From: an uncultured Gammaproteobacteria bacterium | GTDB lineage: Bacteria; Patescibacteriota; Microgenomatia; 2-02-FULL-39-11 | Direction of reading: 5' to 3' | DNA length: 64,000 nucleotides | Assembly (NCBI GenBank): GCA_964520615.1 | Contig: CAZFNL010000137.1 | Span: 148,898 to 212,897 of the forward strand | Shown: positions 11,989-54,804 of the stretch, one piece after another | How the letters are laid out: every line of letters starts with the position of its first letter | Position numbering within the stretch: position 1 is the stretch's first letter | Program-made: the position numbers and the translations under genes | Notes under the pieces: model-generated | Told to the model about the DNA's origin: nothing | The model's database searches: none | The model's input: the letters and a program-made list of their open reading frames with translations, nothing else

Positions 11989-12942
11989 TTAATAATTCGC
12001 AGATTTGGGAGTAGCCAGCTCAATTGCTCCGGAGTCAAGATTTGCTGAACCGGTTGATGTAAACCAGTTTTCGGCAAGTATCCCGTCACCTGGTGGATCA
12101 GCCCTCACCATGGAGCTTTTGGGGTCGATAGAACTACCTTCAAACCAACCTCCGGTATCATTTGCCACATCTATCACCGTATCCTTATAATCTCTAAGCA
12201 CCAACTGTTCCCCGCCATTGGAAAGATTCATAGACGGAAAAATAAAGTCTGGATCAATATCCAGTACAGAATTATCTTTATTGTAATGAGAGATAAGAAA
12301 ATATCCTTTCCCTAATATGGTACTTTCGGGCAAAACCGCATTAAGCGTTGTGGCGTTACCCAAATTTTCCACTGTCCATCCGGTCAAATCTATACTATGT
12401 GTGGTGGTATTTCTCAGCTCTATCCACTCATCTGCAGTGCTTTTACTGCTGCCTCCCCACATCACCTCATTTATGACTACATCTCCCGGTTGGGCCTCCA
12501 TCGTCACTGTAGATGTAGGAGTCGGAGACGGAGTCATCGAGAGTGTCGGAGTTGGAGTAGAAGAAGGAGTCGCTGTCGTTGTGGGAGTAACTGATGGTGT
12601 AACTGTGGGTTCGGGATTTCCTGTTGGAGATGGTGCAACTGTAGGTTCGGGAATGTTTGTTGGAGTCAAAGTCGGCGCAGGAACGTCTCCTGGAAGCCGC
12701 GGGAGCGGTCCTAGCGCCGGCAAAGGACGAAGTGTAGGTAGCGCCCGAAGAGTCGGCAATGGCGCGAATGTAGGAAAAGGATAGAGCCTGATTGTATCAA
12801 AATAATTAGTTGCCGGAGAAAATAAGGAAACAGAACCGGATGGTAAATACTGGGCATTTACAGTCATTACCTGACTAAAAAGTGTAAGCAATCCTAGAAA
12901 GGCTCCGAGTAAAAAATAACCTATTTTTATCTTGGGCAGCAT
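11989..12942 (-). CDS. Secreted lamin-tail-domain (LTD) protein with P/T-rich linker
   Basis: Signal peptide, then a PFPTFAPLPTLRALPTLRPLP repeat module, a long PT-rich linker, and the LTD core GDVVINEVMWGG...DEWIELRN...DLTGW. Confidence 0.7.
   Translation of the reverse strand: MLPKIKIGYFLLGAFLGLLTLFSQVMTVNAQYLPSGSVSLFSPATNYFDTIRLYPFPTFAPLPTLRALPTLRPLPALGPLPRLPGDVPAPTLTPTNIPEPTVAPSPTGNPEPTVTPSVTPTTTATPSSTPTPTLSMTPSPTPTSTVTMEAQPGDVVINEVMWGGSSKSTADEWIELRNTTTHSIDLTGWTVENLGNATTLNAVLPESTILGKGYFLISHYNKDNSVLDIDPDFIFPSMNLSNGGEQLVLRDYKDTVIDVANDTGGWFEGSSIDPKSSMVRADPPGDGILAENWFTSTGSANLDSGAIELATPKSANY
12688..12780 (-). repeat. Second copy of the FPTFAPLPTLR(A/P)LPTLRPLP module at the N-terminus of the LTD protein
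   Basis: 10 identical residues (FPTFAPLPTL) are shared with the C-terminal region of the gene at 13079..13747. Confidence 0.65.
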
Positions 12943-13078: not shown

Positions 13079-13747
13079 TTACCTCAGGGAACGGAGAGTG
13101 GGCAGAGGCCGGAGAGTCGGCAGCGGTCTTAGTGTCGGCAAAGTTCGTAATGTCGGCAAGACTGTATTTAATGTAGGCAAAGGTTTGAGTGTCGGCAAAG
13201 GCGCAAATGTCGGAAATGCCCGGTCGGCAGAATCCACTCCCGCAACAATGTCAAAAATTGTGCTTTTATCCTGGTACTGGTTGCCGGCGGCGGGATCCAT
13301 GCTAACCGTAAAAACATATGTTGTCTTTGACCTTTTGGCTACCTTGGACAGCCAGACTGGACCGCCATTATAGAAATCCGAAAGGGTTTTTATCCCCGTC
13401 TCACTGCCTTGTCCGTAAAGGACTGTGCCGTTTTCGGATATGATAATAAAAAGCGCCTGCGACAATTCCGGGGTGCCGGAATCGGAAAAATTGTAAGCCT
13501 CTATCCCCACAGTCCTTGTGTAAAGGTCAGTATTTTCCACCTCAATACTTTTTGTCACTGTTTTACCCGGCAACCAGTTGGTCTCGGAAAACATCGGGGT
13601 GGAAGGGAATGTCACTTTCAGCGGGCCAAAAGCGCGCACTATACTCATCGTATCACGGCTGGTCTGGTAGGCATTTATAGCTATACCCAAAAGTATAATT
13701 GCCAAAAAAAGTGTGATTATCCTTCTTATTATTTTTATTTTATTCAT
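13079..13747 (-). CDS. TasA/camelysin-like secreted protein with C-terminal PTLRPL tandem repeats
   Basis: Signal peptide. NWLPGKTVTKSIEVENTD parallels the TasA NLKPGDxLTKxFxFxNNG motif. The C-terminal 38 aa are PTL(K/R)PL repeats. Confidence 0.55.
   Translation of the reverse strand: MNKIKIIRRIITLFLAIILLGIAINAYQTSRDTMSIVRAFGPLKVTFPSTPMFSETNWLPGKTVTKSIEVENTDLYTRTVGIEAYNFSDSGTPELSQALFIIISENGTVLYGQGSETGIKTLSDFYNGGPVWLSKVAKRSKTTYVFTVSMDPAAGNQYQDKSTIFDIVAGVDSADRAFPTFAPLPTLKPLPTLNTVLPTLRTLPTLRPLPTLRPLPTLRSLR
13082..13195 (-). repeat. 18-bp (6-codon) tandem repeat encoding PTL(K/R)PL, about 6 units
   Basis: C-terminal PTLKPLPTLNTVLPTLRTLPTLRPLPTLRPLPTLRSLR. The DNA shows reiterated ...gtcggcaa(a/g)g... 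units. Confidence 0.7.
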
Positions 13748-41324: not shown

Positions 41325-41355
41325 GTCGTTAGTTTGTGGTTAGTCTTTGGTCGTT
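41325..41355 (+). repeat. GTTAGT/GGTTGG-like repeat copy in the lepB to giant-gene intergenic spacer
   Basis: gtcgttagtttgtggttagtctttggtcgtt. Confidence 0.35.
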
Positions 41356-41417: not shown

Positions 41418-44400
41418 CTATTCAATATTCTCTGTTATTTGTTCATCAAATTTCTTCGTCTCAGGATAAAATATCACAAATAATATGCCAAAACCCAACA
41501 ATATAAACCCTATATACTCCAGATATTGTGGTAAATAAACGATAATTATTGTCGCTTGTTGCTGATCGCTGGTCGCTGGTTGTTGAAGCTGCCAACCATT
41601 TTCCCAATTGTTTACCAAAACATGATTTTTCAACTCTGTCCCAAACCAGAACGGGAAAGCTTCTAAAAGAAAACCCTTAATTCCTGATTCTTTATTCTTT
41701 ATTCCTACGCTATACGCTTTCCATCCATCATCATAACTTTGTGAAAATGCTAAGATCGTGTTTTTTTCTACCATATTTGAATTAATTTGAACAGAGTAAT
41801 CTGAAATATTATTCTTAGTGAATTGCAGAATTATTTTATTTTCATTTTTCATTTCTGAGGTAGAAGAAGTCAAACTAATTTCCGTAAGGTATTTATAAGG
41901 TATTGGATCTAAAGAGATATCTTTTATTTCATTTACCGAGGGTATCTGATTGAAAGAGCTATCTGTAAATTGTATTCTAACTCCATCATCAAACTGATAA
42001 ATAGGCGGCAAAATATATCTTGAAATGTCGAAGTTTGTACTTCTCGACATAAGAGTATACACATAAGTGGTATCGTTTTTTACAGTAGTAGTCTTCAGAG
42101 TTAGCGGAAATCCGTTAATTAACTTAGTACTTATTGATAACAAATATCCTACGCCGGAAGGTAAATTATTTTGTTCAAATAAATAATTTAACAAATAATT
42201 TTTGGAATATAATAGTAGACTTTTATCATTGTCCGGATAAATATGTTCTGACAGGTAGAAGTCCCCATCAACAGGATTATATTCCCGAGGGTTCCTTCTA
42301 TACTGGTTGTCGTTTATAAGATTACTCCACTCATAACTTCCAGAGATTTTAGGTACATCCACTTTAATTATGGAATCTTTATCCAAGTTAAGTTTAAATC
42401 CTCTTACCGGATTGCTATTTATCGATGTCGTATCGAAATTAAACGATGATATATAAGGGTACGAAAAAACTTCTATATTTTGATAAGATATTGCTTTCTC
42501 TTCAAGTGCTGATTTATCATACCCCGGTTCAAGAATAAATGAAAAAGTATTCGTATTGTTTACTCCGCCGCTATTCTCAAAAAATTCATTATTCCTGAGA
42601 AAATTTGAGGAAAAACTCACTTTGTTATTATTTGACTGGTTTATACAATTACCTGAGGATAAATTTCTTAGGCAGAATTTTGGAAATTCATCGTATTTGG
42701 ATTTATAGATAAAGCTTACCCTATCCAAGCTTTTGGTCGGCAAGGTGGTTAATGGAAAGCTGTATGGTACACAAGTAGGAGTACCTTGCGCAGCTATTGT
42801 CAGTATGTTATCCGATACTTCTGCCGAGTTGAACTTGCCTGGCTTTCCCGAATCGCAATCAACCGCAGTACTGAATGCTTGCGGTTCCAAATCCTGAATC
42901 GTAGGATTGCTTCCCGAATATAGAGATACGGAATTACCAATTAGACTATTAATTAAATATGCATCACCAATAAACCCGTAATTATAAGAAGGGTTTATTA
43001 TGCTTAAAAAGTCCCTATTATTTATACTAAGTAAATAATAGTTCCCGCTAAATTGTACCGGAATAGGAATTGCGAATTGCTTGGATATAGGATTATTATT
43101 GACTTCCACATTGTCTACGTATACTTCCGGATTTTTCAATTGAAAGTTTAAAATTAAGCTGCCACCTTCTATCTTCGCGTAAATAGCAAAAGGCAAAATT
43201 TTTTCTTCATTTATTAAAGAGGGGATATTCAAATAATAATTACCTTTTGGTATTTCCTTCGTAAAACTGGTATCATTGGCTGTGTCCGAAACCGAAAATT
43301 TGACCTCATCCTGGAATCGATTTGTAAATAATGACTCAAAAGGATAAATGTAATCAATTTTTGGACTAGTTTTATCTTGATAATAATTTTCTACGGATCT
43401 ATACAAATTGTCCGTATTACTAAACCTTTCGGTCTTTGCGGTCTGGGGAATGTTATTGAAAAGGCTAAGTGTCCCGGATTCGGAATTATTATTTAGTTTA
43501 TATATGCTTACTGTGCCAAAATTAGCTACCTTAACAAATAGCGGATTATTGACCAGTAGCTCTTTCTGCTGATTTATCCATTTTAAGCTATTGTAATCAG
43601 ACGGAATATAACTTTCATCATACAATATATAAGTAATACCGTATTTTTTTATTGTTGAATTAAATAGACTTTGGTCTCTAGTTCTCAAATCATAAATTAA
43701 TTCCCAATAATACTGCTCCAGGTAATTACTCCAGACGTCAAAGGCTCTATCCATAATCGGCTGTTCTATTCCATACCAAAGAAATCCTGATCCTGTTAGT
43801 CCCCATTTATATGAACCCCATCCCCAATAAGTATCCTGAGGAAGATTCATTATTCTGGCGTTGGTGTCTCTTGTCTTAAAGTAATCAAATACCTGAAAAT
43901 AATAATCAGGAATTTTGATTCTTAACCGATCGGAGAATAAATGTCCGGTAAATACCGGTAATCCGTATATCAATACCATCAATAGGAACAGGAGGAATAT
44001 TGCTTTCTCTATTCTTGTTTTTGTTCGACCGATAAATTCGAAAATAACCGATAAACCAAATCCCAAAAGAAGCGTAAATACTACAGTTGTGGGGACAATG
44101 AATTTGGTAAATGGATTGCGGATTATCTGGTTTATAAGGGGTGCTTGCCGTAATAAAAAGTTAGCCGTGGAAATAATTGGAGTATCACTTAAAAAAACTA
44201 CCGCACTCAAGATCGACATTCCGGCAAAATATTTGCTCTTCTTTCCCCGCAACACTCCCAATAGCATCAAGAGAAAAAATATTATTCCTTCTATTCTAAC
44301 TGGTAAAAGTGAATAATAATCCCTCCATACCTGCATCATATAGACGGGTTTTCCAGGAGTCTGTGTATCATCCTGAGTATCCAGATTAAATCCTTTCAGA

Positions 44401-45251
44401 AATATAAAATCACTTATGTGGCCTCTTTTAAGATTCGTTTCAAAAAACCTGTCATTGTTCATTCTGTTATTCATGGCATTTTGAGTTACTGAAACACTGG
44501 TAAAAATAAAGTAAGCATTCGGAAGAAGCCAGAAGGAATTAATAAGGAAAATAGTTCCGGCAATCACAAAAATTTTCTTTAAAGTCAAAAAGCTCTTATT
44601 TGTGAAGAAATAAATCAGAAATATAATCGAAATAAAAAGCAAATATACAAGAAATATTGTTTCCACATACGCTTGAGGAATCGCTAGTATATTTACCAAG
44701 ACAAACCATATAAAAGCTTTTTTGTTTGGTTTACTTAAATAATTAAATAATCCCCATAACTCCCATGGAAAGAACCCCCAAAAAGTACTGAAAGGTTCAA
44801 AGGGAAAGAAAAAATTCTGTATGGTCCCCAGATTTAACAGATAGAATAAACTGCAAAGCAGCGCTATCTTTCTTACTGATGAGTCTTTTAATCTATCGCT
44901 AAGAAAGAATGTTACGAGTTTGTAGATTCCCAACACACCGATAATAAGCATCAGATATTGATAAAAATATCTTAAAAAGTTTACCGGAATAATTATTGAA
45001 AAAACCGACAATAATAATTGTCTTGGCAGGTCTGCAGCATGAGCCATTCCGCCAAGAAGTCCCAATCCCTGATATTCCTGCCAGACAGCAAAAATAGACC
45101 TGTTTATATTCATGGAAAAATTAAATTCAGGGTGCAAATTATCCCAACCGGCCAGCCATGTCCCCGGCTTATAGTTGGTAAAACAGATTACAGTAACAAC
45201 TGATATGAGGAATAATAAATAAAAAAAATGTTTATTCTTAATAATTGACAT
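41418..45251 (-). CDS. Giant (1277 aa) polytopic membrane protein, putative GT-C/AftD-like glycosyltransferase with large extracytoplasmic domain
   Basis: About 450-aa N-terminal multi-TM block, then about 750 aa of beta-rich Asn/Ser/Tyr-rich sequence, then a C-terminal TM. The architecture resembles DUF3367/AftD-type proteins. Confidence 0.4.
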   Translation of the reverse strand: MSIIKNKHFFYLLFLISVVTVICFTNYKPGTWLAGWDNLHPEFNFSMNINRSIFAVWQEYQGLGLLGGMAHAADLPRQLLLSVFSIIIPVNFLRYFYQYLMLIIGVLGIYKLVTFFLSDRLKDSSVRKIALLCSLFYLLNLGTIQNFFFPFEPFSTFWGFFPWELWGLFNYLSKPNKKAFIWFVLVNILAIPQAYVETIFLVYLLFISIIFLIYFFTNKSFLTLKKIFVIAGTIFLINSFWLLPNAYFIFTSVSVTQNAMNNRMNNDRFFETNLKRGHISDFIFLKGFNLDTQDDTQTPGKPVYMMQVWRDYYSLLPVRIEGIIFFLLMLLGVLRGKKSKYFAGMSILSAVVFLSDTPIISTANFLLRQAPLINQIIRNPFTKFIVPTTVVFTLLLGFGLSVIFEFIGRTKTRIEKAIFLLFLLMVLIYGLPVFTGHLFSDRLRIKIPDYYFQVFDYFKTRDTNARIMNLPQDTYWGWGSYKWGLTGSGFLWYGIEQPIMDRAFDVWSNYLEQYYWELIYDLRTRDQSLFNSTIKKYGITYILYDESYIPSDYNSLKWINQQKELLVNNPLFVKVANFGTVSIYKLNNNSESGTLSLFNNIPQTAKTERFSNTDNLYRSVENYYQDKTSPKIDYIYPFESLFTNRFQDEVKFSVSDTANDTSFTKEIPKGNYYLNIPSLINEEKILPFAIYAKIEGGSLILNFQLKNPEVYVDNVEVNNNPISKQFAIPIPVQFSGNYYLLSINNRDFLSIINPSYNYGFIGDAYLINSLIGNSVSLYSGSNPTIQDLEPQAFSTAVDCDSGKPGKFNSAEVSDNILTIAAQGTPTCVPYSFPLTTLPTKSLDRVSFIYKSKYDEFPKFCLRNLSSGNCINQSNNNKVSFSSNFLRNNEFFENSGGVNNTNTFSFILEPGYDKSALEEKAISYQNIEVFSYPYISSFNFDTTSINSNPVRGFKLNLDKDSIIKVDVPKISGSYEWSNLINDNQYRRNPREYNPVDGDFYLSEHIYPDNDKSLLLYSKNYLLNYLFEQNNLPSGVGYLLSISTKLINGFPLTLKTTTVKNDTTYVYTLMSRSTNFDISRYILPPIYQFDDGVRIQFTDSSFNQIPSVNEIKDISLDPIPYKYLTEISLTSSTSEMKNENKIILQFTKNNISDYSVQINSNMVEKNTILAFSQSYDDGWKAYSVGIKNKESGIKGFLLEAFPFWFGTELKNHVLVNNWENGWQLQQPATSDQQQATIIIVYLPQYLEYIGFILLGFGILFVIFYPETKKFDEQITENIE

Positions 45252-46729: not shown

Positions 46730-48055
46730 TCAATTTTGAGTATAACCTAGAGTCTGCGGTTTATGAAGAGAGAAGTGATCGTGCGGTGATATTATGCTGT
46801 CGAATATCATTGCCGTATTTCTATATGACCTCTTTTCCCTGATTATACCCGCCATTTTAGTCATTTTGCCTTTCAAACCATTCACCAGCACATTTTCAGC
46901 CGTTGACAAACATGATTTGCTATCAAGCGCAAAAACCATATCGGAAATCTTCAATCCGGACATCTCAAGAGCTTGACGAAAATCATCAGAATCAAACATA
47001 CTCTTCAACTCTTCAGAAATAATAAACGGTTTCCTGTAGGAAAAAACCAAGGATAGCACTCCTGAAGCTGTCATAAAATGCCTGTATGGCAGAACGATAA
47101 GGTCTGCCGCGGAAAAATAGGTCGCCAAGTCTTTTTGCGGTATATATCCGGTCACCTCAACTTTATGAGACCGGCCAGCATTATCCATGATTTTCCCGTA
47201 GTAATCGCGGTAATGCGGCCTGTCTATCATTGTCGGGCTTTCACCGCCCGCCAGTATAAACCTGGTTTTTTTGTTTAATACTTTTTGTACATTTCCGAAT
47301 GCCTCGACAAAGAAATCGGCTCCCTTAAACCAGTTGATATACCCGAAAAACATAACCACATATTCATCTTTCCCGATCCTGAGTTTTTTGCGTGACTCTT
47401 CCTTTTCCGGATTTTGTATTTCCGTATCGACTCCATGCGGGATAGTCAAGATCTTATTCTCATCAACAATTTTCCCTAAATTCTGCCTCAAGGCATCTTC
47501 AAGAACTACTGTTTTGTCTGATAAGCGGCCTGCCAGACGGTAGAATAGGTGAAATATCACATTGTATAAATTTCCCTTTATCCGGCCGGCAAAGTTATCC
47601 TTCAACCCGATATGCCCTTTAAGTTTGAAAGCATCCAATACGACGTGATGCATGACTACCGAAACCTGTCTTCCCAAAAGTTTCAGCACTCCCAGAAAAA
47701 AGATTACGGAGAAAGTAGGGATATTCCCCCCAAAAACGGCAAAATCAAACTGGATAAGTATGTTTTTGGCAGATGAGAAGAGTAATAATTTCTTCAGTAT
47801 TTGAAACCAGAGAAACGGATTATTTCTTTCAAAGCAGCGCAGGACAAGTACCCCTTTCTCTTCATAAATTTCTTCTTTTTTGCCACTTTTATCAGCAAGG
47901 ACCACTACCCGGTGCCGCATATGGGTCACGATGTTTTTGGCATATGAAGCCAATCCGGACGTGCCGGATGAGTAGAGCTCCCCTTTTTTGGGATATAAGG
48001 AAACCACAAGGAGAGTATCCCTGTGGTTATAAGCACGTATCAGTCTTTTCTTCAT
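46730..48055 (-). CDS. Glycosyltransferase, GT4-like
   Basis: 441 aa with two Rossmann-like halves. Assignment rests on the FGYINWFKGADFFVEAF and TGYIPQKDLATYFSAADLIVLPY patterns. Confidence 0.55.
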   Translation of the reverse strand: MKKRLIRAYNHRDTLLVVSLYPKKGELYSSGTSGLASYAKNIVTHMRHRVVVLADKSGKKEEIYEEKGVLVLRCFERNNPFLWFQILKKLLLFSSAKNILIQFDFAVFGGNIPTFSVIFFLGVLKLLGRQVSVVMHHVVLDAFKLKGHIGLKDNFAGRIKGNLYNVIFHLFYRLAGRLSDKTVVLEDALRQNLGKIVDENKILTIPHGVDTEIQNPEKEESRKKLRIGKDEYVVMFFGYINWFKGADFFVEAFGNVQKVLNKKTRFILAGGESPTMIDRPHYRDYYGKIMDNAGRSHKVEVTGYIPQKDLATYFSAADLIVLPYRHFMTASGVLSLVFSYRKPFIISEELKSMFDSDDFRQALEMSGLKISDMVFALDSKSCLSTAENVLVNGLKGKMTKMAGIIREKRSYRNTAMIFDSIISPHDHFSLHKPQTLGYTQN

Positions 48056-48347
48056 ATTTCAAAAATTACTTACTCTACTGTCATGCTGAACTTGTTTCAG
48101 CATCTCATCTCATAAAATATTTATTCTTCTGACCTCAAGTTTCCTTCAGATCAAAAGAACAACCAGAAACGCAAGAAAGAGAAAAAGTGTGACAAAAAGC
48201 CACGACTTGACAGCTTTCGCCGTCTTTCCCTTCCCTATTGGTTGTTTATAGTTTTGTGCCCCTGGCACTTCATCCGGGTGGTATTTTCCCAGAATGGTTG
48301 AACTACTCAACCTTTTTCTCCCCCGGGGAGAAGCGGAGTCGCCTGTA

Positions 48348-48388
48348 AAGGCGGCCCCGCTTGTTGTCCCTTTCGGGGGGGCCGCCTT
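48348..48388 (-). other. GC-rich stem-loop (11-bp perfect stem AAGGCGGCCCC/GGGGCCGCCTT) 25 nt downstream of the high-GC gene. No U-tract follows.
   Basis: Read directly from the sequence. The loop contains a nested ccc-ttt-cggg element. Confidence 0.4.
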
Positions 48389-48412
48389 GTGCGCGTTGCG
48401 ACGTTGCCGGAA

Positions 48413-48976
48413 CTAGTTGTTGGGGGCAATCGGGTGAAACCCGACGCCATCCGCAGAAAAGGTAGCGCCCGGCAAAGGGCACTGCACCGTTCGCGTAGTC
48501 CCATCCCAGCGATCGGATTTCTTCGGGATCTGCACCCAGCAGCCGCGCGCGTTTTGCGGTTCGGCGAATCCAGACCAATAGGTCAACATGCTGTTTTGAC
48601 CCGGGTGCTTAAAGGTAACCGGATGATCCGGGTCCCAATAACCCCACATGGTATGTTCGTCGTTACGCGACGTCCATTTTTCGGGTGAACCACCAATGTT
48701 GGTGCTGAGCCACTTCTGGGCATCAGCCACCGACATGGTATTCAAGCCCCACGGATCTGACTTCGCGACCGGCGCGACGGGCTGAACGGGCGCGACGGGC
48801 GCGGGCGGGTTGACGCTCTGAGTGATCGGCGCGGGTGTCCGCGGCCAGATCACATACGCCACCCCAGCTGTTACCACGCATCCCGCAACCAAGATCAAAA
48901 GGCATCCGCATTCCAAGCACCCGGTCAAAAGCTTGCCCCAATTGCGTTGGAGCCAGCCTTGCTGTTGCTCTTCCAT
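48413..48976 (-). CDS. Membrane-anchored hypothetical protein encoded in an anomalously high-GC segment
   Basis: Strong SD GGGAGG 5 nt before the ATG. N-terminal TM (LLILVAGCVVTAGVAYVIW), a PAPVAPVQPVAPV linker, and a 120-aa Trp-rich domain. Codon third positions are strongly G/C, unlike all neighbours. Confidence 0.5.
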   Translation of the reverse strand: MEEQQQGWLQRNWGKLLTGCLECGCLLILVAGCVVTAGVAYVIWPRTPAPITQSVNPPAPVAPVQPVAPVAKSDPWGLNTMSVADAQKWLSTNIGGSPEKWTSRNDEHTMWGYWDPDHPVTFKHPGQNSMLTYWSGFAEPQNARGCWVQIPKKSDRWDGTTRTVQCPLPGATFSADGVGFHPIAPNN

Positions 48977-48987
48977 TATTACCTCCC

Positions 48988-49009
48988 AAGCCGTTTGAGA
49001 AAACGGCTT
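48988..49009 (-). promoter_or_regulatory. 5'UTR stem-loop (9-bp stem, 4-nt loop) abutting the SD of the high-GC gene
   Basis: aagccgttt-gaga-aaacggctt. On the mRNA strand it ends 2 nt before GGGAGG. Confidence 0.4.
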
Positions 49010-49017
49010 GTGATTGT

Positions 49018-49033
49018 CCCAAAGGCCTTTGGG
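49018..49033. promoter_or_regulatory. Perfect 16-bp palindrome CCCAAAGGCCTTTGGG upstream of the high-GC gene
   Basis: It equals its own reverse complement exactly. It lies about 42-57 nt upstream of the ATG at 48976 on the transcribed strand. Confidence 0.45.
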
Positions 49034-49426
49034 GTCTTTGAGACACTAAGAACTTGACTTTGTCTGCCTCCCTCATCCGGCGCCGGAGCTACAGACACAA
49101 TGATCCCGGGATTGCAGAGAGCAAAAAGCCTCTCTGAATAGGCTAATATTTTTGACCTCCTCAGCCTATACTTTGATTAACCCCAAGATACCGGAAAACT
49201 GTAAATAAGAGCTATAAAAACTACCAACCAGTCTTATTCACATTTTTCCGGCATCAAGAGGATTTCCCTGAAAACTATGTCTGTAAATTTTAACAACCAA
49301 TTTTTTATTGCCCTTCTCCGGCAAAGCCGGATCAGGACAATTTTGCGTAATTCCAAAATTTACATTTTGGAAACGCAATATTGCGTTTCTGGTTTTTAAG
49401 GTGCGATTCCGATGAAACATCGGAAT

Positions 49427-49459
49427 AGTTGATAGTTAATAGTTTATGGTTGGCAGTTG
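49427..49459 (+). repeat. GTTAGT/GGTTGG degenerate repeat, copy (forward type)
   Basis: agttgatagttaatagtttatggttggcagttg, immediately after a 9-bp-stem hairpin at 49406-49426. Confidence 0.5.
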
Positions 49460-49771
49460 CACTTCACTGCGTTTGGTGTAAACAACTGCGCCAAAAACTA
49501 AAACTTCCAACTTTTCAGTCTTTGAGAGTCTGCAATCGCGATAGACTGCTTATCTTCCAGACTGACTCGGGCTTAAACCCAAGATGAAAAGAAATTGTTG
49601 TGGCGGGTTATGATCACACGTCACCCATAACCAATTTCCCTTCATCCTGGATATAATCTCTATTTAATTGTCAATACAGCTCTTACAAAAATATCCTCTC
49701 GCCTGTCGGAGGGGAGGAAACCTTTTACTCCATCCCGTTCCGGGCAGAACAAGAAAAGAGGACAAATTATT

Positions 49772-49848
49772 TTAGTTAGCAGTTGATGGTTGGCCGTTGA
49801 TGGTTCTTTTATTATGTTTCTAACTACTAACCACTAACTATTAACTAG
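49772..49848 (+). repeat. Pair of GTTAGT/GGTTGG repeat copies in inverted orientation (imperfect palindrome) abutting the stop of the gene at 49841..50509
   Basis: ttagttagcagttgatggttggccgttgatgg ... ctaactactaaccactaactattaactag. A 12-mer, tagttaatagtt, is shared with the copy at 49427. Confidence 0.5.
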
Positions 49849-50509
49849 TTACCGCTTTTTTTCTCAGATACAAACCTGATACAAGCGCTGATCCCAAACC
49901 GGCTAGTGACAATAACCAATGTTCGGGTCCGGCTTTAGGAGCGCTAGTGACAGTGATCTGTTTTTCTATACAAAACTGGCTTTCATCGTGGTCACTCTCT
50001 CCACCTGATGCGGCATCAACCGTATTTACCAAACAAACTACATTTTTATCAGACGGCAGGACTGCCGGGTGTACCGTCCTGACTTTTACTTCATACTGCT
50101 GGTCGGTACCTCCGGCAAGATTGTTTACCGTGAATGTTAAAACCCTTGAATTGCTATCATAACTGCCTGGACCCGACATAAAGTCCACATAGGACGGTAA
50201 AGCGTCTTTTACCGTGACGGTATCCAGTGTCTGGTCGCCGGAATTTTGTACATCGATATGGAAAGTGACTACCTGTTCAGGACGATATTTGGGGTCTGCC
50301 GGACCCAGGTTGTCCACAAAAACCCCTGTTGCAGGATTTTGTACAGTCTTGTTTACCAAAACCTGTCCGACCCGCGGACACTGTACTCCTCCACCGTAAA
50401 CTGGAGTACAACCTGTGCCGTATGCGCCGTCAGCAAAAATTGACTGGGGTAAAAATAAAGTTACCGAAAATAAGGTCAAAAAAAATACTGCCTGTTTCAG
50501 ACTTTTCAT
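49841..50509 (-). CDS. Secreted protein with C-terminal TM anchor and basic tail
   Basis: Signal peptide. VTFHIDVQNSGDQTLDTVTVKDALP resembles a DUF11-like repeat domain. C-terminus GPEHWLLSLAGLGSALVSGLYLRKKAVTS. Confidence 0.5.
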   Translation of the reverse strand: MKSLKQAVFFLTLFSVTLFLPQSIFADGAYGTGCTPVYGGGVQCPRVGQVLVNKTVQNPATGVFVDNLGPADPKYRPEQVVTFHIDVQNSGDQTLDTVTVKDALPSYVDFMSGPGSYDSNSRVLTFTVNNLAGGTDQQYEVKVRTVHPAVLPSDKNVVCLVNTVDAASGGESDHDESQFCIEKQITVTSAPKAGPEHWLLSLAGLGSALVSGLYLRKKAVTS

Positions 50510-50583
50510 AAAACTCCTTTTTTTGGGCAGATTAATAAGTTGCGGGGGATTATATCACGCTAAAAAGTAGTTGTCAAGTACTA

Positions 50584-50635
50584 TAGGTCAAAATTAGTTA
50601 GTGGTTGGTCGTTGGTGGTTGATAGTTAGAATTTA
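50584..50635 (+). repeat. GTTAGT/GGTTGG degenerate repeat, copy upstream of the four-helix-bundle gene
   Basis: ttagttagtggttggtcgttggtggttgatagttagaatttatagttgttag. Confidence 0.5.
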
Positions 50636-50673
50636 TAGTTGTTAGAAATAAAAAGTTATTCTAATATACGACT

Positions 50674-51054
50674 ATGGGAAAGATTACAAAACTGGGTGAT
50701 ATTGAAGTCTATAAAGAGGCTTTAACCTTAACTTCAGAGATTTATGCGCTTACAAGGAGCTACAAATTAAGAAAGGATTTTGCGTTAGTCGATCAGGTAC
50801 GACGCGCATCAATTTCAATTGCGGCAAATATAGCAGAAGGGTATGGCAGGAAATCCAAAGGTGATTTCTGCCGATTTCTTTCCATATCCTTAGGTTCAGT
50901 AAATGAAGTCATCACATATCTTGATTTTATAAGCTTTGAATATAAACTCGATACAAAACTGCTAACTGAAAAATTCAATAAACTGGCCAGCAGAGTCGCT
51001 TCATTTCGCAAATATTTAACTACTAACTACAAACTACCAACTGCTAACCAATAA
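50674..51054 (+). CDS. Four-helix-bundle protein (23S rRNA intervening-sequence protein / Avd-like family)
   Basis: ALTLTSEIYALTRSY...QVRRASISIAANIAEGYGRKSKGDFCRFLSISLGSVNEV matches the TIGR02436/PF05635 signature closely. Confidence 0.8.
   Translation: MGKITKLGDIEVYKEALTLTSEIYALTRSYKLRKDFALVDQVRRASISIAANIAEGYGRKSKGDFCRFLSISLGSVNEVITYLDFISFEYKLDTKLLTEKFNKLASRVASFRKYLTTNYKLPTANQ
51017..51051 (+). repeat. Inverted copy of the GTTAGT/GGTTGG repeat forming the last 12 codons of the four-helix-bundle gene
   Basis: taactactaactacaaactaccaactgctaaccaa. Its reverse complement is ttggttagcagttggtagtttgtagttagtagtta (compare 49772 ttagttagcagttg). Confidence 0.45.
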
Positions 51055-51057
51055 ATT

Positions 51058-52293
51058 ATGAAACCGAAGTACCATCCTTTTTTAGCCTTACAATTCCGAG
51101 ATTTCAGACTATTGTGGCTGGGGATGCTCATATCCAGAATAGGATCTGAAATGCAGGTGGTTGCCCTAAACTGGCAGATTTATCTTATCACCGGTTCCGC
51201 TCTTTCCCTTGGACTTATAGGGTTATCAAGATTTTTACCGATTATCTTTTTTTCACTGGCGGGAGGAATGATAGCGGATATCGCGGACCGAAAAAAACTG
51301 ATGATTGCGGCACAAACCGTATCTATGGCCACCGCTTTTATTTTCGCGATCACCACGTTTACCCACAATATCAGTCCCCTCCTCATCTATTTTCTCCTGG
51401 CGATAAACTCCATTGCTACTTCTTTTGAGACTCCCGCACGCCAGTCACTAGTACCCGCGCTCGTGCCTGAAAAATATTTCATCAACGCTGTCAGTCTCAA
51501 TACCATCATGTGGCAATCAGCCATGGTAATTGGCCCTACTATTGCGGGATTTATTATCGCTTTACACGGAGTCGGCGCGGTTTACACTCTCAATGCCTTT
51601 TCTTTTCTGGCGGTAATTTTTTCCCTTTTTGCCATATGTCCTCCGAAATCACCCCGGCCAATCAAGGTTGACTTTAATCTTGATACTGTAAGAGATGGAA
51701 TAAGATTTGTCAAAAACACTCCCATTATCTATTCCACTATGCTTTTGGACTTTTTTGCCACATTTTTTGCCTCAGCCACTGTCCTTTTGCCAATATTTGC
51801 CAAAGATATACTCAAAGTCGGACCCCAAGGGATGGGCATACTTTATGCGTCTGCCTCAATAGGAGCAGTTACCGCCGGTCTCTTTGTCTCCTCTTTGGGC
51901 CACATAAAACACCAGGGGAAAATACTACTTTTAGCAGTTTCAGTTTATGGCCTGGCCACGATTCTTTTTGGCATATCAAAATCATTTTATCTCTCGATAC
52001 TATTCCTCTTTCTGACCGGAGCAGGCGACGTCATCAGTACAATAATAAGAAATACGATTAGACAACTGGCTACACCTGACCATATAAGAGGCAGAATGGT
52101 TTCAATTAATATGATATTTTTTATGGGCGGGCCGCAGCTGGGTGAAACAGAAGCCGGAATTACGGCAGCGATGCTGGGCGCTCCTCTCTCTGTCGTCCTG
52201 GGAGGAGCGGGAACTCTGACCGCAGTGGGGCTTTTAGCTTTGCTTATTCCAAAACTGAGAAATTATCAGGGAGATGAGTTAATTACAAAATAG
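51058..52293 (+). CDS. MFS transporter
   Basis: 411 aa with 12 TM and a DRKKLM motif after TM2 (MFS signature). Confidence 0.8.
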   Translation: MKPKYHPFLALQFRDFRLLWLGMLISRIGSEMQVVALNWQIYLITGSALSLGLIGLSRFLPIIFFSLAGGMIADIADRKKLMIAAQTVSMATAFIFAITTFTHNISPLLIYFLLAINSIATSFETPARQSLVPALVPEKYFINAVSLNTIMWQSAMVIGPTIAGFIIALHGVGAVYTLNAFSFLAVIFSLFAICPPKSPRPIKVDFNLDTVRDGIRFVKNTPIIYSTMLLDFFATFFASATVLLPIFAKDILKVGPQGMGILYASASIGAVTAGLFVSSLGHIKHQGKILLLAVSVYGLATILFGISKSFYLSILFLFLTGAGDVISTIIRNTIRQLATPDHIRGRMVSINMIFFMGGPQLGETEAGITAAMLGAPLSVVLGGAGTLTAVGLLALLIPKLRNYQGDELITK

Positions 52294-52363
52294 TAAAAAA
52301 GTGGCGGGCGGTGTGCTAAAAACAGATAGATGTAATTCATTAGTTGATAATTGTTATTAGTAT

Positions 52364-53872
52364 ATGCCTGATTCTGAAAAAGAAAAATTAATTCTTGAAG
52401 AGTCTGTCTATGACCTCCGGGAGGATTTTGAAGAATTGGAGTATATTGCCCGGTCCGGAATAACTCAACTGAATAGATTTGAACTAAAGCTGAAACAAGT
52501 TAGAAAATCCATTATCCCCGAGATACTAATTGACACAAAGGATAATGTTAATCTTCTTCTCTCTCAATATAATAATCTCCTTCAAAGTTTATCTACCGCC
52601 AAAAAAGACCTAAATAAAGCAAATAAAAGTCAGAAAGCTATATTTGAGGCTTCTTTTCATAAAAGAGTCAACTTTGAAAAATTAAGGACCCTTTATAACC
52701 AAACCGCTGCAGCCCTTACAAGTCTTGACTGGCAATCTCCCACCGCTTCCCACACGCTTTTCTCCCAGGCAGGAAGCCAAACCGGCAAAATAAAAGCCAC
52801 TCTGGTTGATTACAAGCGTGACGCACATCTTGATGAAGCGGAATATGAGAAGAAATTCCTTAATCAATATATCGATTCTATGATAAAAATAGGCATAAAT
52901 ACCTACATGACCGCCAGCGGGATGGCAGCTTTCACCACCATTCTGAACTTTCTTCTGGGAGAAAAAAAAGTTTATGGAAAATTGCTTTTAGGAAGATCAT
53001 CCTACTTCCAATATAAGGATATACTGTTGAAACTATTAAATAACAAAATTATAGAATTTGATGAAACTGACACAGAGAAATTAAAAGCGTTAATCAATAA
53101 GATCAGGCCATCCGCCATATTTATCGACTCGCTTTGCAATGCTAAAAATATACCTGTTCCGGATATGAAAAGGTTGATGGATTATCTGCAAAAAAGATGC
53201 AACTGGGAGTTGTTTCTTGTCATTGACAATACCTGCCTTGCTACATCCTGCCAACCGTTTGACCTCCTTTCCCCTCTAAAAAGAAATATCGGCCTCATCG
53301 TCTTTGAAAGCCTGATGAAATACCACCATTTCGGCCTGGATAGGATAACAGGCGGTATAATTGCCGCAAGAGGAAAAGATATTGGTAAACTTTATGACTG
53401 GAGGAAAAACTCCGGCACCAACATCACTGATATGGGAGTTTATCAATTCCCTATTCCCCACCGGAAAATGCTGGACAGGCGGCTGAGGAGATTCTCAAGA
53501 AACGCCAGCATATTGACCCAAAAACTTCAACAATTTATAGACACTACAAACGGTAAATATGTAAATTCGATAATATGCCCTGCCCAAAAACCTACATTTA
53601 CAGGTAGTTTTTTCAATATCGGCTTCACTAAACCTGATATCAAATTGTATAAACATTTTATCAAAAGCGTCATGGAAGAAACCAAAAGGGCAAAAGCGGA
53701 ACTTCACCATGGAACAAGTTTTGGCCTTAATCACACCAGAATTTACCTTACTTCCTACTGGACCAGGTATGGCGATCCTTTTGTCCGTATCTCAGTTGGT
53801 ACCGAAAACCGGCTGGAGATGGAAAAAATATTGCATGTATTTAAGGAAGTAATCAGAAAGATGAATGATTAA
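52364..53872 (+). CDS. Cys/Met-metabolism-family PLP-dependent enzyme with roughly 170-aa N-terminal coiled extension
   Basis: ASGMAAF, VIDNTCLATSCQPFDLL and FESLMKYHHFGLDRITGGI correspond to SGMAAI / VDNTFATP / SATKYIGGHSD of the cystathionine gamma-synthase/lyase family. Confidence 0.65.
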   Translation: MPDSEKEKLILEESVYDLREDFEELEYIARSGITQLNRFELKLKQVRKSIIPEILIDTKDNVNLLLSQYNNLLQSLSTAKKDLNKANKSQKAIFEASFHKRVNFEKLRTLYNQTAAALTSLDWQSPTASHTLFSQAGSQTGKIKATLVDYKRDAHLDEAEYEKKFLNQYIDSMIKIGINTYMTASGMAAFTTILNFLLGEKKVYGKLLLGRSSYFQYKDILLKLLNNKIIEFDETDTEKLKALINKIRPSAIFIDSLCNAKNIPVPDMKRLMDYLQKRCNWELFLVIDNTCLATSCQPFDLLSPLKRNIGLIVFESLMKYHHFGLDRITGGIIAARGKDIGKLYDWRKNSGTNITDMGVYQFPIPHRKMLDRRLRRFSRNASILTQKLQQFIDTTNGKYVNSIICPAQKPTFTGSFFNIGFTKPDIKLYKHFIKSVMEETKRAKAELHHGTSFGLNHTRIYLTSYWTRYGDPFVRISVGTENRLEMEKILHVFKEVIRKMND

Positions 53873-53946
53873 TACAAGCTAAATCTCAAAGCTCAAATCA
53901 AAATGTAATTAGCGTAAATCTTGCAATCGAACATTTGAGATAAAAA

Positions 53947-54804
53947 ATGAAATCCGTTGCTCTTGTCACCTGGAAAGGTTATCCAAAACTATTTGACGGT
54001 GACAAACTGCTCATTGAACCGTTTCAAAAAAGCGGGTTTGCTCCTGCAGCTATTGCGTGGGATAAGAAAGGTATTGACTGGACCGATTTTGATATTGTGA
54101 TTCTGCGCTCAACCTGGGATTACCATACAAGACTGAAGGAATTCTATAATTGGATCGATCAGTGTATTGAGAAAAAGGTAAACCTTTGGAATCCTCCGGA
54201 AATAATCAGGTGGAATACTGATAAAAGGTACCTTTTTGATCTGCAGAAAATGGGCATCCATATTGTACCTACACTTTTGTGTACCAAAGATTCTATTGAT
54301 GACGCCAGAAATAATGCAATTTTAGCCGGATGGAAAAATATCATCATCAAACCAATTCATGGAGCCTCAAGCTATAAAACACTTAGGATAAATACTGCTG
54401 AATTTACTACTGGTAGTCCTTCTTTTACGAATCTGTCTTCAAAAGAAAACTTATTGATACAACCATTTATGGAAGAGATTATGACTGAAGGCGAATACTC
54501 TTTTGTCTTCATCAACAAAGAATATAGTCACGCCGTCTTAAAGGTTCCCCGAAAAAACGAATTCCGTTCCCAGAGGGAATTTGGCGGAAAGGAAATTGCG
54601 GTCAATCCGACTCAATCACTTATTTTTCAAGCACAAAAAGTACTCGATCACATTCCTTCTACTCTTTTATACGCACGGGTAGACGGAATCAATATAAAAG
54701 AACAATTCCATCTGATGGAACTTGAACTGACCGAGCCGTATCTCTTTTTTGAGAAAAAAGAAGGTTCGGCACAAAAGTTTGTCAAGGCCGCCATCGGTTT
54801 ATAG
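53947..54804 (+). CDS. ATP-grasp ligase, RimK/GshB-like (LysX-sized, 285 aa)
   Basis: RSTWDY...WNTDKRYLFDLQKMGIHIVPT is the pre-ATP-grasp plus grasp N-lobe pattern. C-terminal ARVDGI...MELELTEP. Confidence 0.6.
   Translation: MKSVALVTWKGYPKLFDGDKLLIEPFQKSGFAPAAIAWDKKGIDWTDFDIVILRSTWDYHTRLKEFYNWIDQCIEKKVNLWNPPEIIRWNTDKRYLFDLQKMGIHIVPTLLCTKDSIDDARNNAILAGWKNIIIKPIHGASSYKTLRINTAEFTTGSPSFTNLSSKENLLIQPFMEEIMTEGEYSFVFINKEYSHAVLKVPRKNEFRSQREFGGKEIAVNPTQSLIFQAQKVLDHIPSTLLYARVDGINIKEQFHLMELELTEPYLFFEKKEGSAQKFVKAAIGL

Follow-up and report, generated by a model that had tools for sequence, protein, structure and literature searches.

Why should a gene for a four-helix-bundle (4HB) protein be enclosed by two mutually complementary arrays of short repeats, at a site between protein-coding genes? 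We address this question for a 64,000-nt stretch of contig CAZFNL010000137.1 (assembly GCA_964520615.1, positions 148,898 to 212,897 of the forward strand; hereafter the window), from a bacterium of the candidate phyla radiation (CPR). Here a 4HB gene of the family PF05635 (S23p) lies between a gene for a secreted DUF11 protein and a transporter gene, and together with its flanking repeats it is referred to as the cassette. The repeats are tandem heptamer arrays that are complementary to each other, and inverted heptamer arms of this kind are the norm for PF05635 genes across phyla. The cassette is ancient at this locus and has been lost by deletion in some relatives. We interpret the region as containing members of an element class of inverted tandem heptamers: one that carries a gene and one or two that do not.

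Tandem heptamer arrays around the four-helix-bundle gene

Five tandem arrays of a degenerate heptamer (unit xRGTTRx or its complement), each of 4–5 units, are present at 49424–51051, and none elsewhere in the window. Arrays of the GTT type are designated F and those of the complementary AAC type R. The arrays and the gene enclosed by the last two of them are the following:

A1, 49424..49460, + strand: F (GTT type), solitary; TAGTTGA TAGTTAA TAGTTTA TGGTTGG CAGTTGC
A2, 49772..49806, + strand: F (GTT type); hairpin partner of A3, with a 14-nt loop
A3, 49820..49853, + strand: R (AAC type); CTAACTA CTAACCA CTAACTA TTAACTA
A4, 50594..50645, + strand: F (GTT type), upstream arm of the cassette; TAGTTAG TGGTTGG TCGTTGG TGGTTGA TAGTTAG and two degenerate units
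A5, 51017..51051, + strand: R (AAC type), downstream arm of the cassette, coding for 4HB residues 115–126 (LTTNYKLPTANQ)
4HB protein gene, 50674..51054, + strand: 126 aa, PF05635 / TIGR02436

GTT or AAC units recurring in phase 7 four or more times were observed at five places, all within 49428–51048, whereas first-order Markov shuffles predict 0.02. The two-unit pattern RGTTR-N2-RGTTR, sought on both strands, gave 11 matches against 1.8 expected, every one of them inside the five arrays. Tandem Repeats Finder (TRF) reports a period of 7 with 4.0–4.6 copies for A1, A3 and A5. Phased GTT or AAC runs of 4–5 units are present in all five arrays, which conform to the class of bacterial tandem heptamer repeats (head-to-tail 7-nt units, at least 2–3 copies, mainly intergenic). 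Such strict periodicity (5 arrays against 0.02 expected) argues against AT/GT-rich low complexity, which a preliminary description of this DNA had named as a possible undoing of its own proposal.

That description had seen the repeats as at least six copies of a 30–50-bp element. The repeats are real but are better described as tandem heptamers, and five of the copies stand. The remaining one, at 41325, contains two GTTAGT motifs at a spacing of 11 nt, forms no period-7 array and does not match the two-unit pattern; compared by eye with A5 in reverse complement, it agrees in 17 of 20 positions, and it is at most a doubtful array fragment. A4 and A5 bracket the 4HB open reading frame (ORF) as had been claimed, with A4 beginning about 10 nt to the right of the start first given (50584). 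That F copies precede genes is true of the 4HB gene only: A3 extends over the stop codon and the final three codons of the minus-strand DUF11 gene, which carries a GTT-type array at the 3′ end on its own strand.

The four-helix-bundle protein

The product of the enclosed gene is clearly a member of PF05635. It matches the Pfam family with 97 bits (cut-off 33.8) over residues 9–115 and TIGR02436 with 92.6 bits (cut-off 24), and is similar to PDB entries 2GSC (XCC0516, 1.8e-12) and 2RLD, both deposited with five chains. The conserved family motif GxxRxxxSxxxNxxE (PMC3936711) is present as Q41-R44-S48-N52-E55, with Q in the position of G; among 53 relatives Q41, S48, N52 and E55 never vary and R44 hardly does.

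The last 12 codons of the gene had been described as the inverted repeat itself, and A5 indeed encodes residues 115–126, the Pfam match stopping at 115. Repeat-encoded tails are found in many homologues, for example TTNYPLQTNH, FTTHNS and PTTHNP. Because the tail codons are A5 and the homologues have similar repeat-coded tails, we regard the C-terminus as read-through of the array, outside the domain. For annotators, this means that odd N- or C-terminal tails on PF05635 proteins are repeat read-through.

Inverted heptamer arms of PF05635 genes across phyla

A sample of 80 PF05635 loci was retrieved with a peptide pattern derived from the conserved protein core, one genome per species being scanned. 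The sample is unselected for repeats, since the retrieval pattern is unrelated to them, and it does not include the source genome of the window. The loci, given here as L numbers, come from Bacteroidota, Cyanobacteria, Alpha-, Beta-, Gamma- and Deltaproteobacteria, Planctomycetota, Chloroflexota, Acidobacteriota, Verrucomicrobiota, Nitrospirota, CPR and two archaea. The upstream flank was compared with the downstream flank by an ungapped inverted-repeat score, with 412 displaced windows of equal spacing and mismatched arms as controls. RNA duplex energy was rejected as a test of arm complementarity and replaced by this score, as it is governed by G+C content and does not discriminate.

The median inverted-repeat score was 17 for cognate arms, 8 for displaced windows and 7 for arms taken from different loci. 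The control 95th percentile was exceeded by 62 of the 80 loci and the 99th by 58 (Mann-Whitney p = 3e-35). Both counts are lower bounds, because several loci among the 18 weak ones carry frameshifts or have arrays that have visibly degenerated. In almost every locus the gene is preceded by a tandem array and followed by the reverse complement of that array; of the 62 positive loci, 58 have a period of 7 and the others one of 8. In approximately one third of the loci, as in the window, the ORF extends into the downstream array. Read in the sense direction, upstream arms are rich in G (963 G versus 252 C) and downstream arms in C, and the flanking genes are co-oriented with the PF05635 gene in 58 of 71 cases upstream and 53 of 72 downstream.

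The unit itself differs from locus to locus (GGGAATA, GGGTGTA, GGATTGA, CGGCAGT, GTGAATG, GTGAGTA, GGGAGTC, AGTTTCT, TAACTGA and others). As it varies by lineage while the two arms of a locus match, the arms change together, which can be seen as large-scale covariation. Rhizobia provide an example: judging from the flanking ORFs, the gene occupies one conserved site, where one nuo-type gene ends and the next begins, and the unit is GTGAGTA, GGCAATA, GTGAATG, GCGAATA or CGGCAGT, with both arms following it. In a full-text search, which did not extend to subscription literature, we found no publication that links PF05635 genes in general to flanking heptamer arrays.

Predicted pairing of the arms and a proposed RNA processing model

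In the folding check suggested for the F/R pairs, both A4/A5 and A2/A3 pair thermodynamically in predicted folds. For the cassette, the predicted structure is closed by a long helix:

Closing helix (predicted), 50586..51065, + strand: 33 pairs, 50586–50629 with 51023–51065, 3 G·U pairs among them

The RNA of 50580–51065 folds with a minimum free energy (MFE) of -122.8 kcal/mol (z = -4.3 against shuffles), and neither A4 nor A5 shows any structure when folded singly. As an isolated duplex, A4 with A5 yields -36.6 kcal/mol for the sense RNA and -28.5 for the antisense RNA; the sense duplex is stronger by 8 kcal/mol because of its three G·U pairs. The base of the predicted helix holds the stop codon of the 4HB gene (51052–51054) and the start codon of the transporter gene of the MFS_3 family (51058–51060). 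A2 and A3 form a local hairpin directly past the DUF11 stop, at the end of the secreted-protein gene where it had been noticed before, with -21.5 kcal/mol for plus-strand and -17.7 kcal/mol for minus-strand RNA (z = -2.75 for both).

The explanation that we rank as most likely, and which has a slight balance of probability in its favour, is a cassette of the intervening sequence (IVS) type, in which a 4HB gene bracketed by a stem sits between protein-coding genes and is subject to processing of the RNase III type. If a transcript runs across both A4 and A5, the arms would anneal into a helix of approximately 25–33 bp that closes off the 4HB ORF. By analogy with IVSs, RNase III would then cut this helix and split the 4HB message from the flanking RNA. 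The helix would also bury the MFS start codon. Ribosomes finishing the 4HB ORF would melt the helix, because A5 is translated as its last 12 codons, so that translation of the MFS gene would depend on helix cleavage or on translation of the 4HB gene. Co-transcription of the 4HB and MFS genes is likely, given the 4-nt gap between them. Finally, tandem heptamers allow the pairing register to shift, and concerted evolution by slippage, if it occurs, would explain how the unit can drift while complementarity is kept. Were the model true for the window, expression of the downstream MFS transporter would be tied to the state of the helix.

In favour of an RNA helix are the precedent from Coxiella, the fixed polarity of the arms, the co-oriented neighbours and the arm mismatches of the CPR subset, with 20 G·U (in sense RNA) against 3 A·C in a subset that is small and partly non-independent. 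In the 23S IVS of Coxiella, a 28-bp terminal stem is accompanied by tandem GACAGAT heptamers in front of the S23p ORF, the first of which is where RNase III cleaves (PMC4990558); this is the one published case we found of an S23p gene with heptamers. The analogy with rRNA IVSs drawn in the preliminary description gains from both results, the Coxiella heptamers being an RNase III cut site and the inverted-array layout recurring around most PF05635 genes.

Several observations weigh against the RNA model or are neutral towards it. Family-wide, arm mismatches number 94 G·U (sense) against 96 A·C, with no sign of selection specific to the sense RNA. Among close CPR relatives, arms paired across loci score nearly as high as cognate ones and covariation is clear only at larger distances; strict covariation is weak there because the units share a GTT/GTG core. 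The count of closing pairs in MFE structures discriminates poorly (median 38 for cognate arms versus 20 for controls). The 4HB gene is divergent from the DUF11 gene, and the sequence before A4 showed no consensus promoter on the plus strand, so that co-transcription of A4 with the 4HB gene is only predicted. Lastly, in two lineages (L091 and L094, see below) the upstream array persists without the gene and the other arm; such lone arrays fit either an independent role or slow decay.

Gene-less inverted pairs and recognition by the protein

Additional heptamer arrays were present in 33 of the surveyed loci (in stretches of 6 kb), often as inverted pairs 50–100 nt apart with no gene inside. The unit of a gene-less array is within 1 mismatch of that of the neighbouring cassette in 22 of 55 comparisons, versus 166 of 3740 comparisons across loci. 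In Xanthomonas, 70–75 convergent inverted pairs of GGGAATC are described in a published study (PMC4692102). A2/A3 therefore belongs to the same class as the gene-less inverted pairs near other cassettes and in Xanthomonas. Pairing is also possible between A1 and A3 in a predicted fold of 446 nt (z = -4.9). We do not count A1/A3 as a cassette, because the interval contains the DUF11 terminator but no remnant of a gene: a degraded gene between A1 and A3 was considered and rejected, as tblastn with 120 homologues and six-frame translation revealed no trace of a 4HB gene.

These gene-less pairs lend themselves to a second explanation, at the level of DNA and reminiscent of REPIN-RAYT systems (built on repetitive extragenic palindromic, REP, sequences), which we judge possible, though unlikely. 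The arrays would be the repeat proper, and a pentamer of the 4HB protein would bind them, as DNA or RNA, and maintain or spread them; gene-carrying cassettes would be "autonomous" and gene-less pairs such as A2/A3 "non-autonomous". Gene-less pairs are found close to many cassettes, and the agreement of their units with the cassette units, seen also in L085 and the window, speaks for this explanation. It is further favoured by the occurrence, among the PF05635 loci, of lineages reported to be heptamer-rich, with the units known from those reports (GGGAATC in Xanthomonas, L046; TAACTGA in L078, a metagenome-assembled genome of Thermoguttaceae; cyanobacteria, L011, L024 and L056), by the lack of a family-wide excess of G·U over A·C, and by the proteins themselves: a toroidal homopentamer has been described for XCC0516, a structural homologue, and the Avd protein of diversity-generating retroelements (DGRs) is treated as a homologue in the family.

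On the other side, PF05635 proteins outside DGRs are not known to bind nucleic acids or to possess a catalytic motif, several different units stand side by side in cyanobacterial loci, and the 64 kb of the window hold no arrays beyond the 1.7-kb cluster. The strong polarity of the arms would be unexpected for a symmetric element that acts purely at the DNA level. Recognition by the protein and processing by RNase III are compatible rather than mutually exclusive. An even wider proposal, which we consider doubtful, is that PF05635 genes and heptamer repeats (STRR, TAACTGA, GGGAATC and others) are the two halves of a single ubiquitous, unrecognised element class. An Avd-like pentamer would recognise the array specific to its lineage and maintain, homogenise or spread it, gene-less arrays would be non-autonomous members, and rRNA IVSs would be a special insertion site.

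History of the cassette at this locus

Relatives both with and without the cassette were found, which allowed the comparison of such loci suggested in the preliminary description:

L084, L085/L086 and L088: 4HB protein 64–65% identical; DUF11 (-), 4HB (+) and MFS (+) with both arrays
L091–L093: MFS 96% identical, DNA 80–86%; without 4HB gene, degenerate upstream array retained
L094: MFS 70% identical; upstream array only
L095: MFS 65% identical; neither gene nor array

The units of the three 4HB-carrying relatives differ and yet are related (TAGTGAG/TAGTGGG, GTTGTGG/GTTGTTG and GGGTTGT). Since the DUF11/4HB/MFS context is kept at a protein identity of approximately 65% and the units are related, the cassette is old and vertically inherited. 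L091–L093 have 89 nt in place of window positions 50588–51056, which retain a degenerate upstream array and AAAGATTACAAAACT, 15 nt that correspond to ORF codons 3–7, followed by the MFS start. As the upstream array and AAAGATTACAAAACT remain, these loci are deletion derivatives that lost the ORF and the downstream arm and are not empty targets.

A MITE-like (miniature inverted-repeat transposable element), recently mobile cassette that entered the space between the DUF11 and MFS genes, the arrays serving as its terminal inverted repeats, had been put forward before and is improbable on these grounds. What speaks for it is that the gene is missing at the DUF11–MFS site in some relatives, that 4HB homologues at 58–64% identity sit in other, unrelated contexts, and that the family is scattered, having been reported within cas operons and at several rRNA sites. 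From the last two facts it follows that the 4HB gene relocates over long times. At the present site, the gene order shared at about 65% identity reflects long vertical descent, and the nearest relative is the internal deletion derivative, which keeps the upstream arm. Inspection of the cassette edges by eye showed no duplicated bases that would indicate a target-site duplication, no transposase was found nearby in the scanned predicted proteins, and unit number does not vary among the near-identical metagenome contigs L001–L003. A count of dispersed copies that covered the 64 kb of the window gave none outside 49424–51051.

The other arrays have their own history. In L091, A1 occupies the same place with altered units, and A2 with the loop (46 nt) is absent. 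An array is present at the position of A3 in both L091 and L084, and the DUF11 3′ end of L091 carries an A3-type array only. At the DUF11 3′ end of L085 there is an adjacent gene-less F/R pair (152–215) with units of the L085 type. A hairpin with conserved arms (GATACCGGAAAA...TTTCCGGCATC) at 2440–2520 of L091 corresponds to window 49187–49255; its loop in L091 contains an extra GT-rich array together with a CA-rich one, and the window counterpart only a short CTACCAACC fragment. This is another site of paired-array gain and loss. L085 also has, at 1055–1683 between the DUF11 gene and the 4HB cassette, a 160-aa ORF (faint HTH_23/HTH_29 match) and a 47-aa ORF; this insertion may be a transposase fragment.

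Neighbouring genes and genomic context

The features adjoining the cassette are the following:

DUF11 (PF01345) secreted-protein gene, 49841..50509, - strand: left neighbour of the cassette
DUF11 promoter, 50549..50577, - strand: perfect TTGACA-17-TATAAT, left limit of conserved host sequence
Conserved hairpin followed by AUAUUUUUGU (U-run), 49681..49764, - strand: -29.7 kcal/mol, likely intrinsic terminator of the DUF11 gene
MFS_3 transporter gene, 51058..52293, + strand: start 4 nt past the 4HB stop

Homology between the window and L091 stops at 50587, by the DUF11 promoter. The core block of the DUF11 terminator is nearly identical in the window and L091, in surroundings of 70–80% identity (approximately 80% overall). 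By eye, closing sequences resembling this terminator (ATATCC...GAGGATAT) also occur in L094 and L095. The A2/A3 hairpin is placed in the 3′ untranslated region of the DUF11 gene, and is not its terminator, because the likely terminator hairpin with its U-run lies further downstream; the REP-like terminator suggested for A2/A3 is not borne out for the same reason. That the arrays are just ordinary terminators or REP-like mRNA-stabilising hairpins unrelated to the 4HB gene, or GT/AT-rich low complexity, is hardly credible and was rejected as a sufficient explanation: the A2/A3 hairpin does lie right past the DUF11 stop and the arrays are compositionally simple, but the DUF11 terminator is separate and better conserved, A4 and A5 are 370 nt apart with an ORF enclosed, and the array statistics, with their strict and highly non-random periodicity, and the family-wide inverted-repeat scores of PF05635 loci rule out coincidence.

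Downstream of the cassette, 51058–54804 encodes the MFS_3 transporter, a pyridoxal phosphate (PLP)-dependent enzyme of Cys/Met metabolism (502 aa) and an ATP-grasp protein. This run is conserved and recurs in L085, L091 and L094, and the ATP-grasp homologue of relatives carries a DcsG_N domain. It may be a cluster for small-molecule biosynthesis and export in a CPR genome. The wider surroundings are chromosomal, with glycosyltransferases, a signal peptidase, an ATP synthase operon and SecA. Homologues indicate an affiliation with Patescibacteria (CPR), close to Gottesmanbacteria/Microgenomates. Searches of the window for Rfam families, rRNA and tRNA gave no family at gathering score.

On the left side, a terminator-like hairpin (11-bp stem and T-run, with no obvious gene before it) is present at 49367–49392 (+), with A1 directly after it. 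At 49419–49536 (+) lies the one Rfam match of note below threshold, to the cyano-S1 leader (ribosomal protein S1), which at 24.9 bits falls short of the gathering score of 39.9 and serves as a lead only. Protein S1 has been proposed as a candidate binder of TAACTGA heptamers (MacGregor, 2015; PMC4679880). Further to the left, 48150–49100 forms a G+C-rich island (G+C 0.475 for the bin 48001–50000, about 0.35–0.39 in neighbouring bins) with an ORF of 187 aa at 48413–48976 (-) that has no Pfam match. L091 aligns up to 48815 only (78.8%) and diverges past that position, and in metagenome contig L001, which begins with a Nextera adapter (AGATGTGTATAAGAGACAG), the sequence left of 48981 is G+C-rich and unrelated. 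The island resembles either the variable end of a gene or a junction in the assembly.

Other tandem repeats in the window include a period-7 array of GTCGCTG-like units at 41549–41586, in the 3′ part of an ORF of 1277 aa (41418–45251, -), where it codes by eye for a linker rich in Q, P, A, T and S; its sequence is unrelated to the xRGTTRx arrays. TRF further reports repeats of 36 nt (2 copies) at 12593–12665 and of 18 nt (5.3 copies) at 13116–13213.

Comparison with known systems

The closest known counterparts are the rRNA IVSs that carry an S23p gene (Leptospira, Coxiella, Brucella, and as reported also CPR rRNA genes), whose protein belongs to the same family, PF05635, as that of the window cassette. 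As in those, the ORF lies between terminal inverted repeats able to form a stem, of approximately 25–30 bp in IVSs and 33 predicted pairs in the window. Unlike them, the cassette is located between the DUF11 and MFS genes and not in an rRNA helix. Its arms are also explicit five-unit heptamer arrays, the downstream one translated, and processing by RNase III would follow only by analogy.

The arrays resemble the tandem heptamers known from other bacteria, namely the short tandemly repeated repetitive (STRR) sequences of cyanobacteria, TAACTGA (PMC4679880) and GGGAATC (PMC4692102), which have 7-nt units repeated from 2 to more than 40 times, are intergenic and often stand just before start codons. 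The passages of these reports that were covered treat the repeats as free-standing, with roles given as unknown or as regulatory or G-quadruplex-related, and make no link to PF05635. Arrays of these very kinds flank PF05635 genes in our sample: TAACTGA in L078, the GGGAAT type in L046 and GGGAATA/GGGAACA in L011, L024 and L056. The window unit xRGTTRx differs from the published heptamers in being degenerate and specific to its CPR lineage.

In REPIN-RAYT systems, or REPtrons, a gene is flanked by inverted short repeats, the repeat also occurs without the gene elsewhere, and its sequence is specific to the genome. Inverted short repeats around a gene and gene-less copies are common to both. The 4HB protein, unlike a RAYT, is not a Y1 transposase of the HUH type (PF05635 is its sole family match), and tandem heptamers take the place of the palindromic REPs. 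A further difference is that one genome often has several PF05635 genes.

Avd, the accessory protein of DGRs, is treated as a homologous 4HB protein of the same CDD family; it forms a pentamer and binds both the reverse transcriptase (RT) and RNA. Unlike in DGRs, no RT was found among the 19 largest predicted proteins scanned at 35.4–63.9 kb (approximately -15/+13 kb from the cassette), no long direct repeat of the template/variable type is present within 49000–51400, and the neighbours are chromosomal housekeeping genes. PADLOC and PHROG gave no match. An origin from a DGR, a defence system or a phage was therefore rejected.

Thus far, rRNA IVSs with an S23p ORF, the abundant 4HB genes of unknown function and the heptamer repeats, unexplained for decades, have been described separately. 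The comparison suggests that they share one architecture, a 4HB gene closed off by complementary arrays that drift with the lineage, and the long-unexplained heptamer repeats of bacteria may be tied to the PF05635 family. This makes the function of heptamer repeats, and the role of S23p/Avd-like proteins outside DGRs, accessible to testing. The cassette of the window appears to be an ordinary member of this seemingly under-described pattern.

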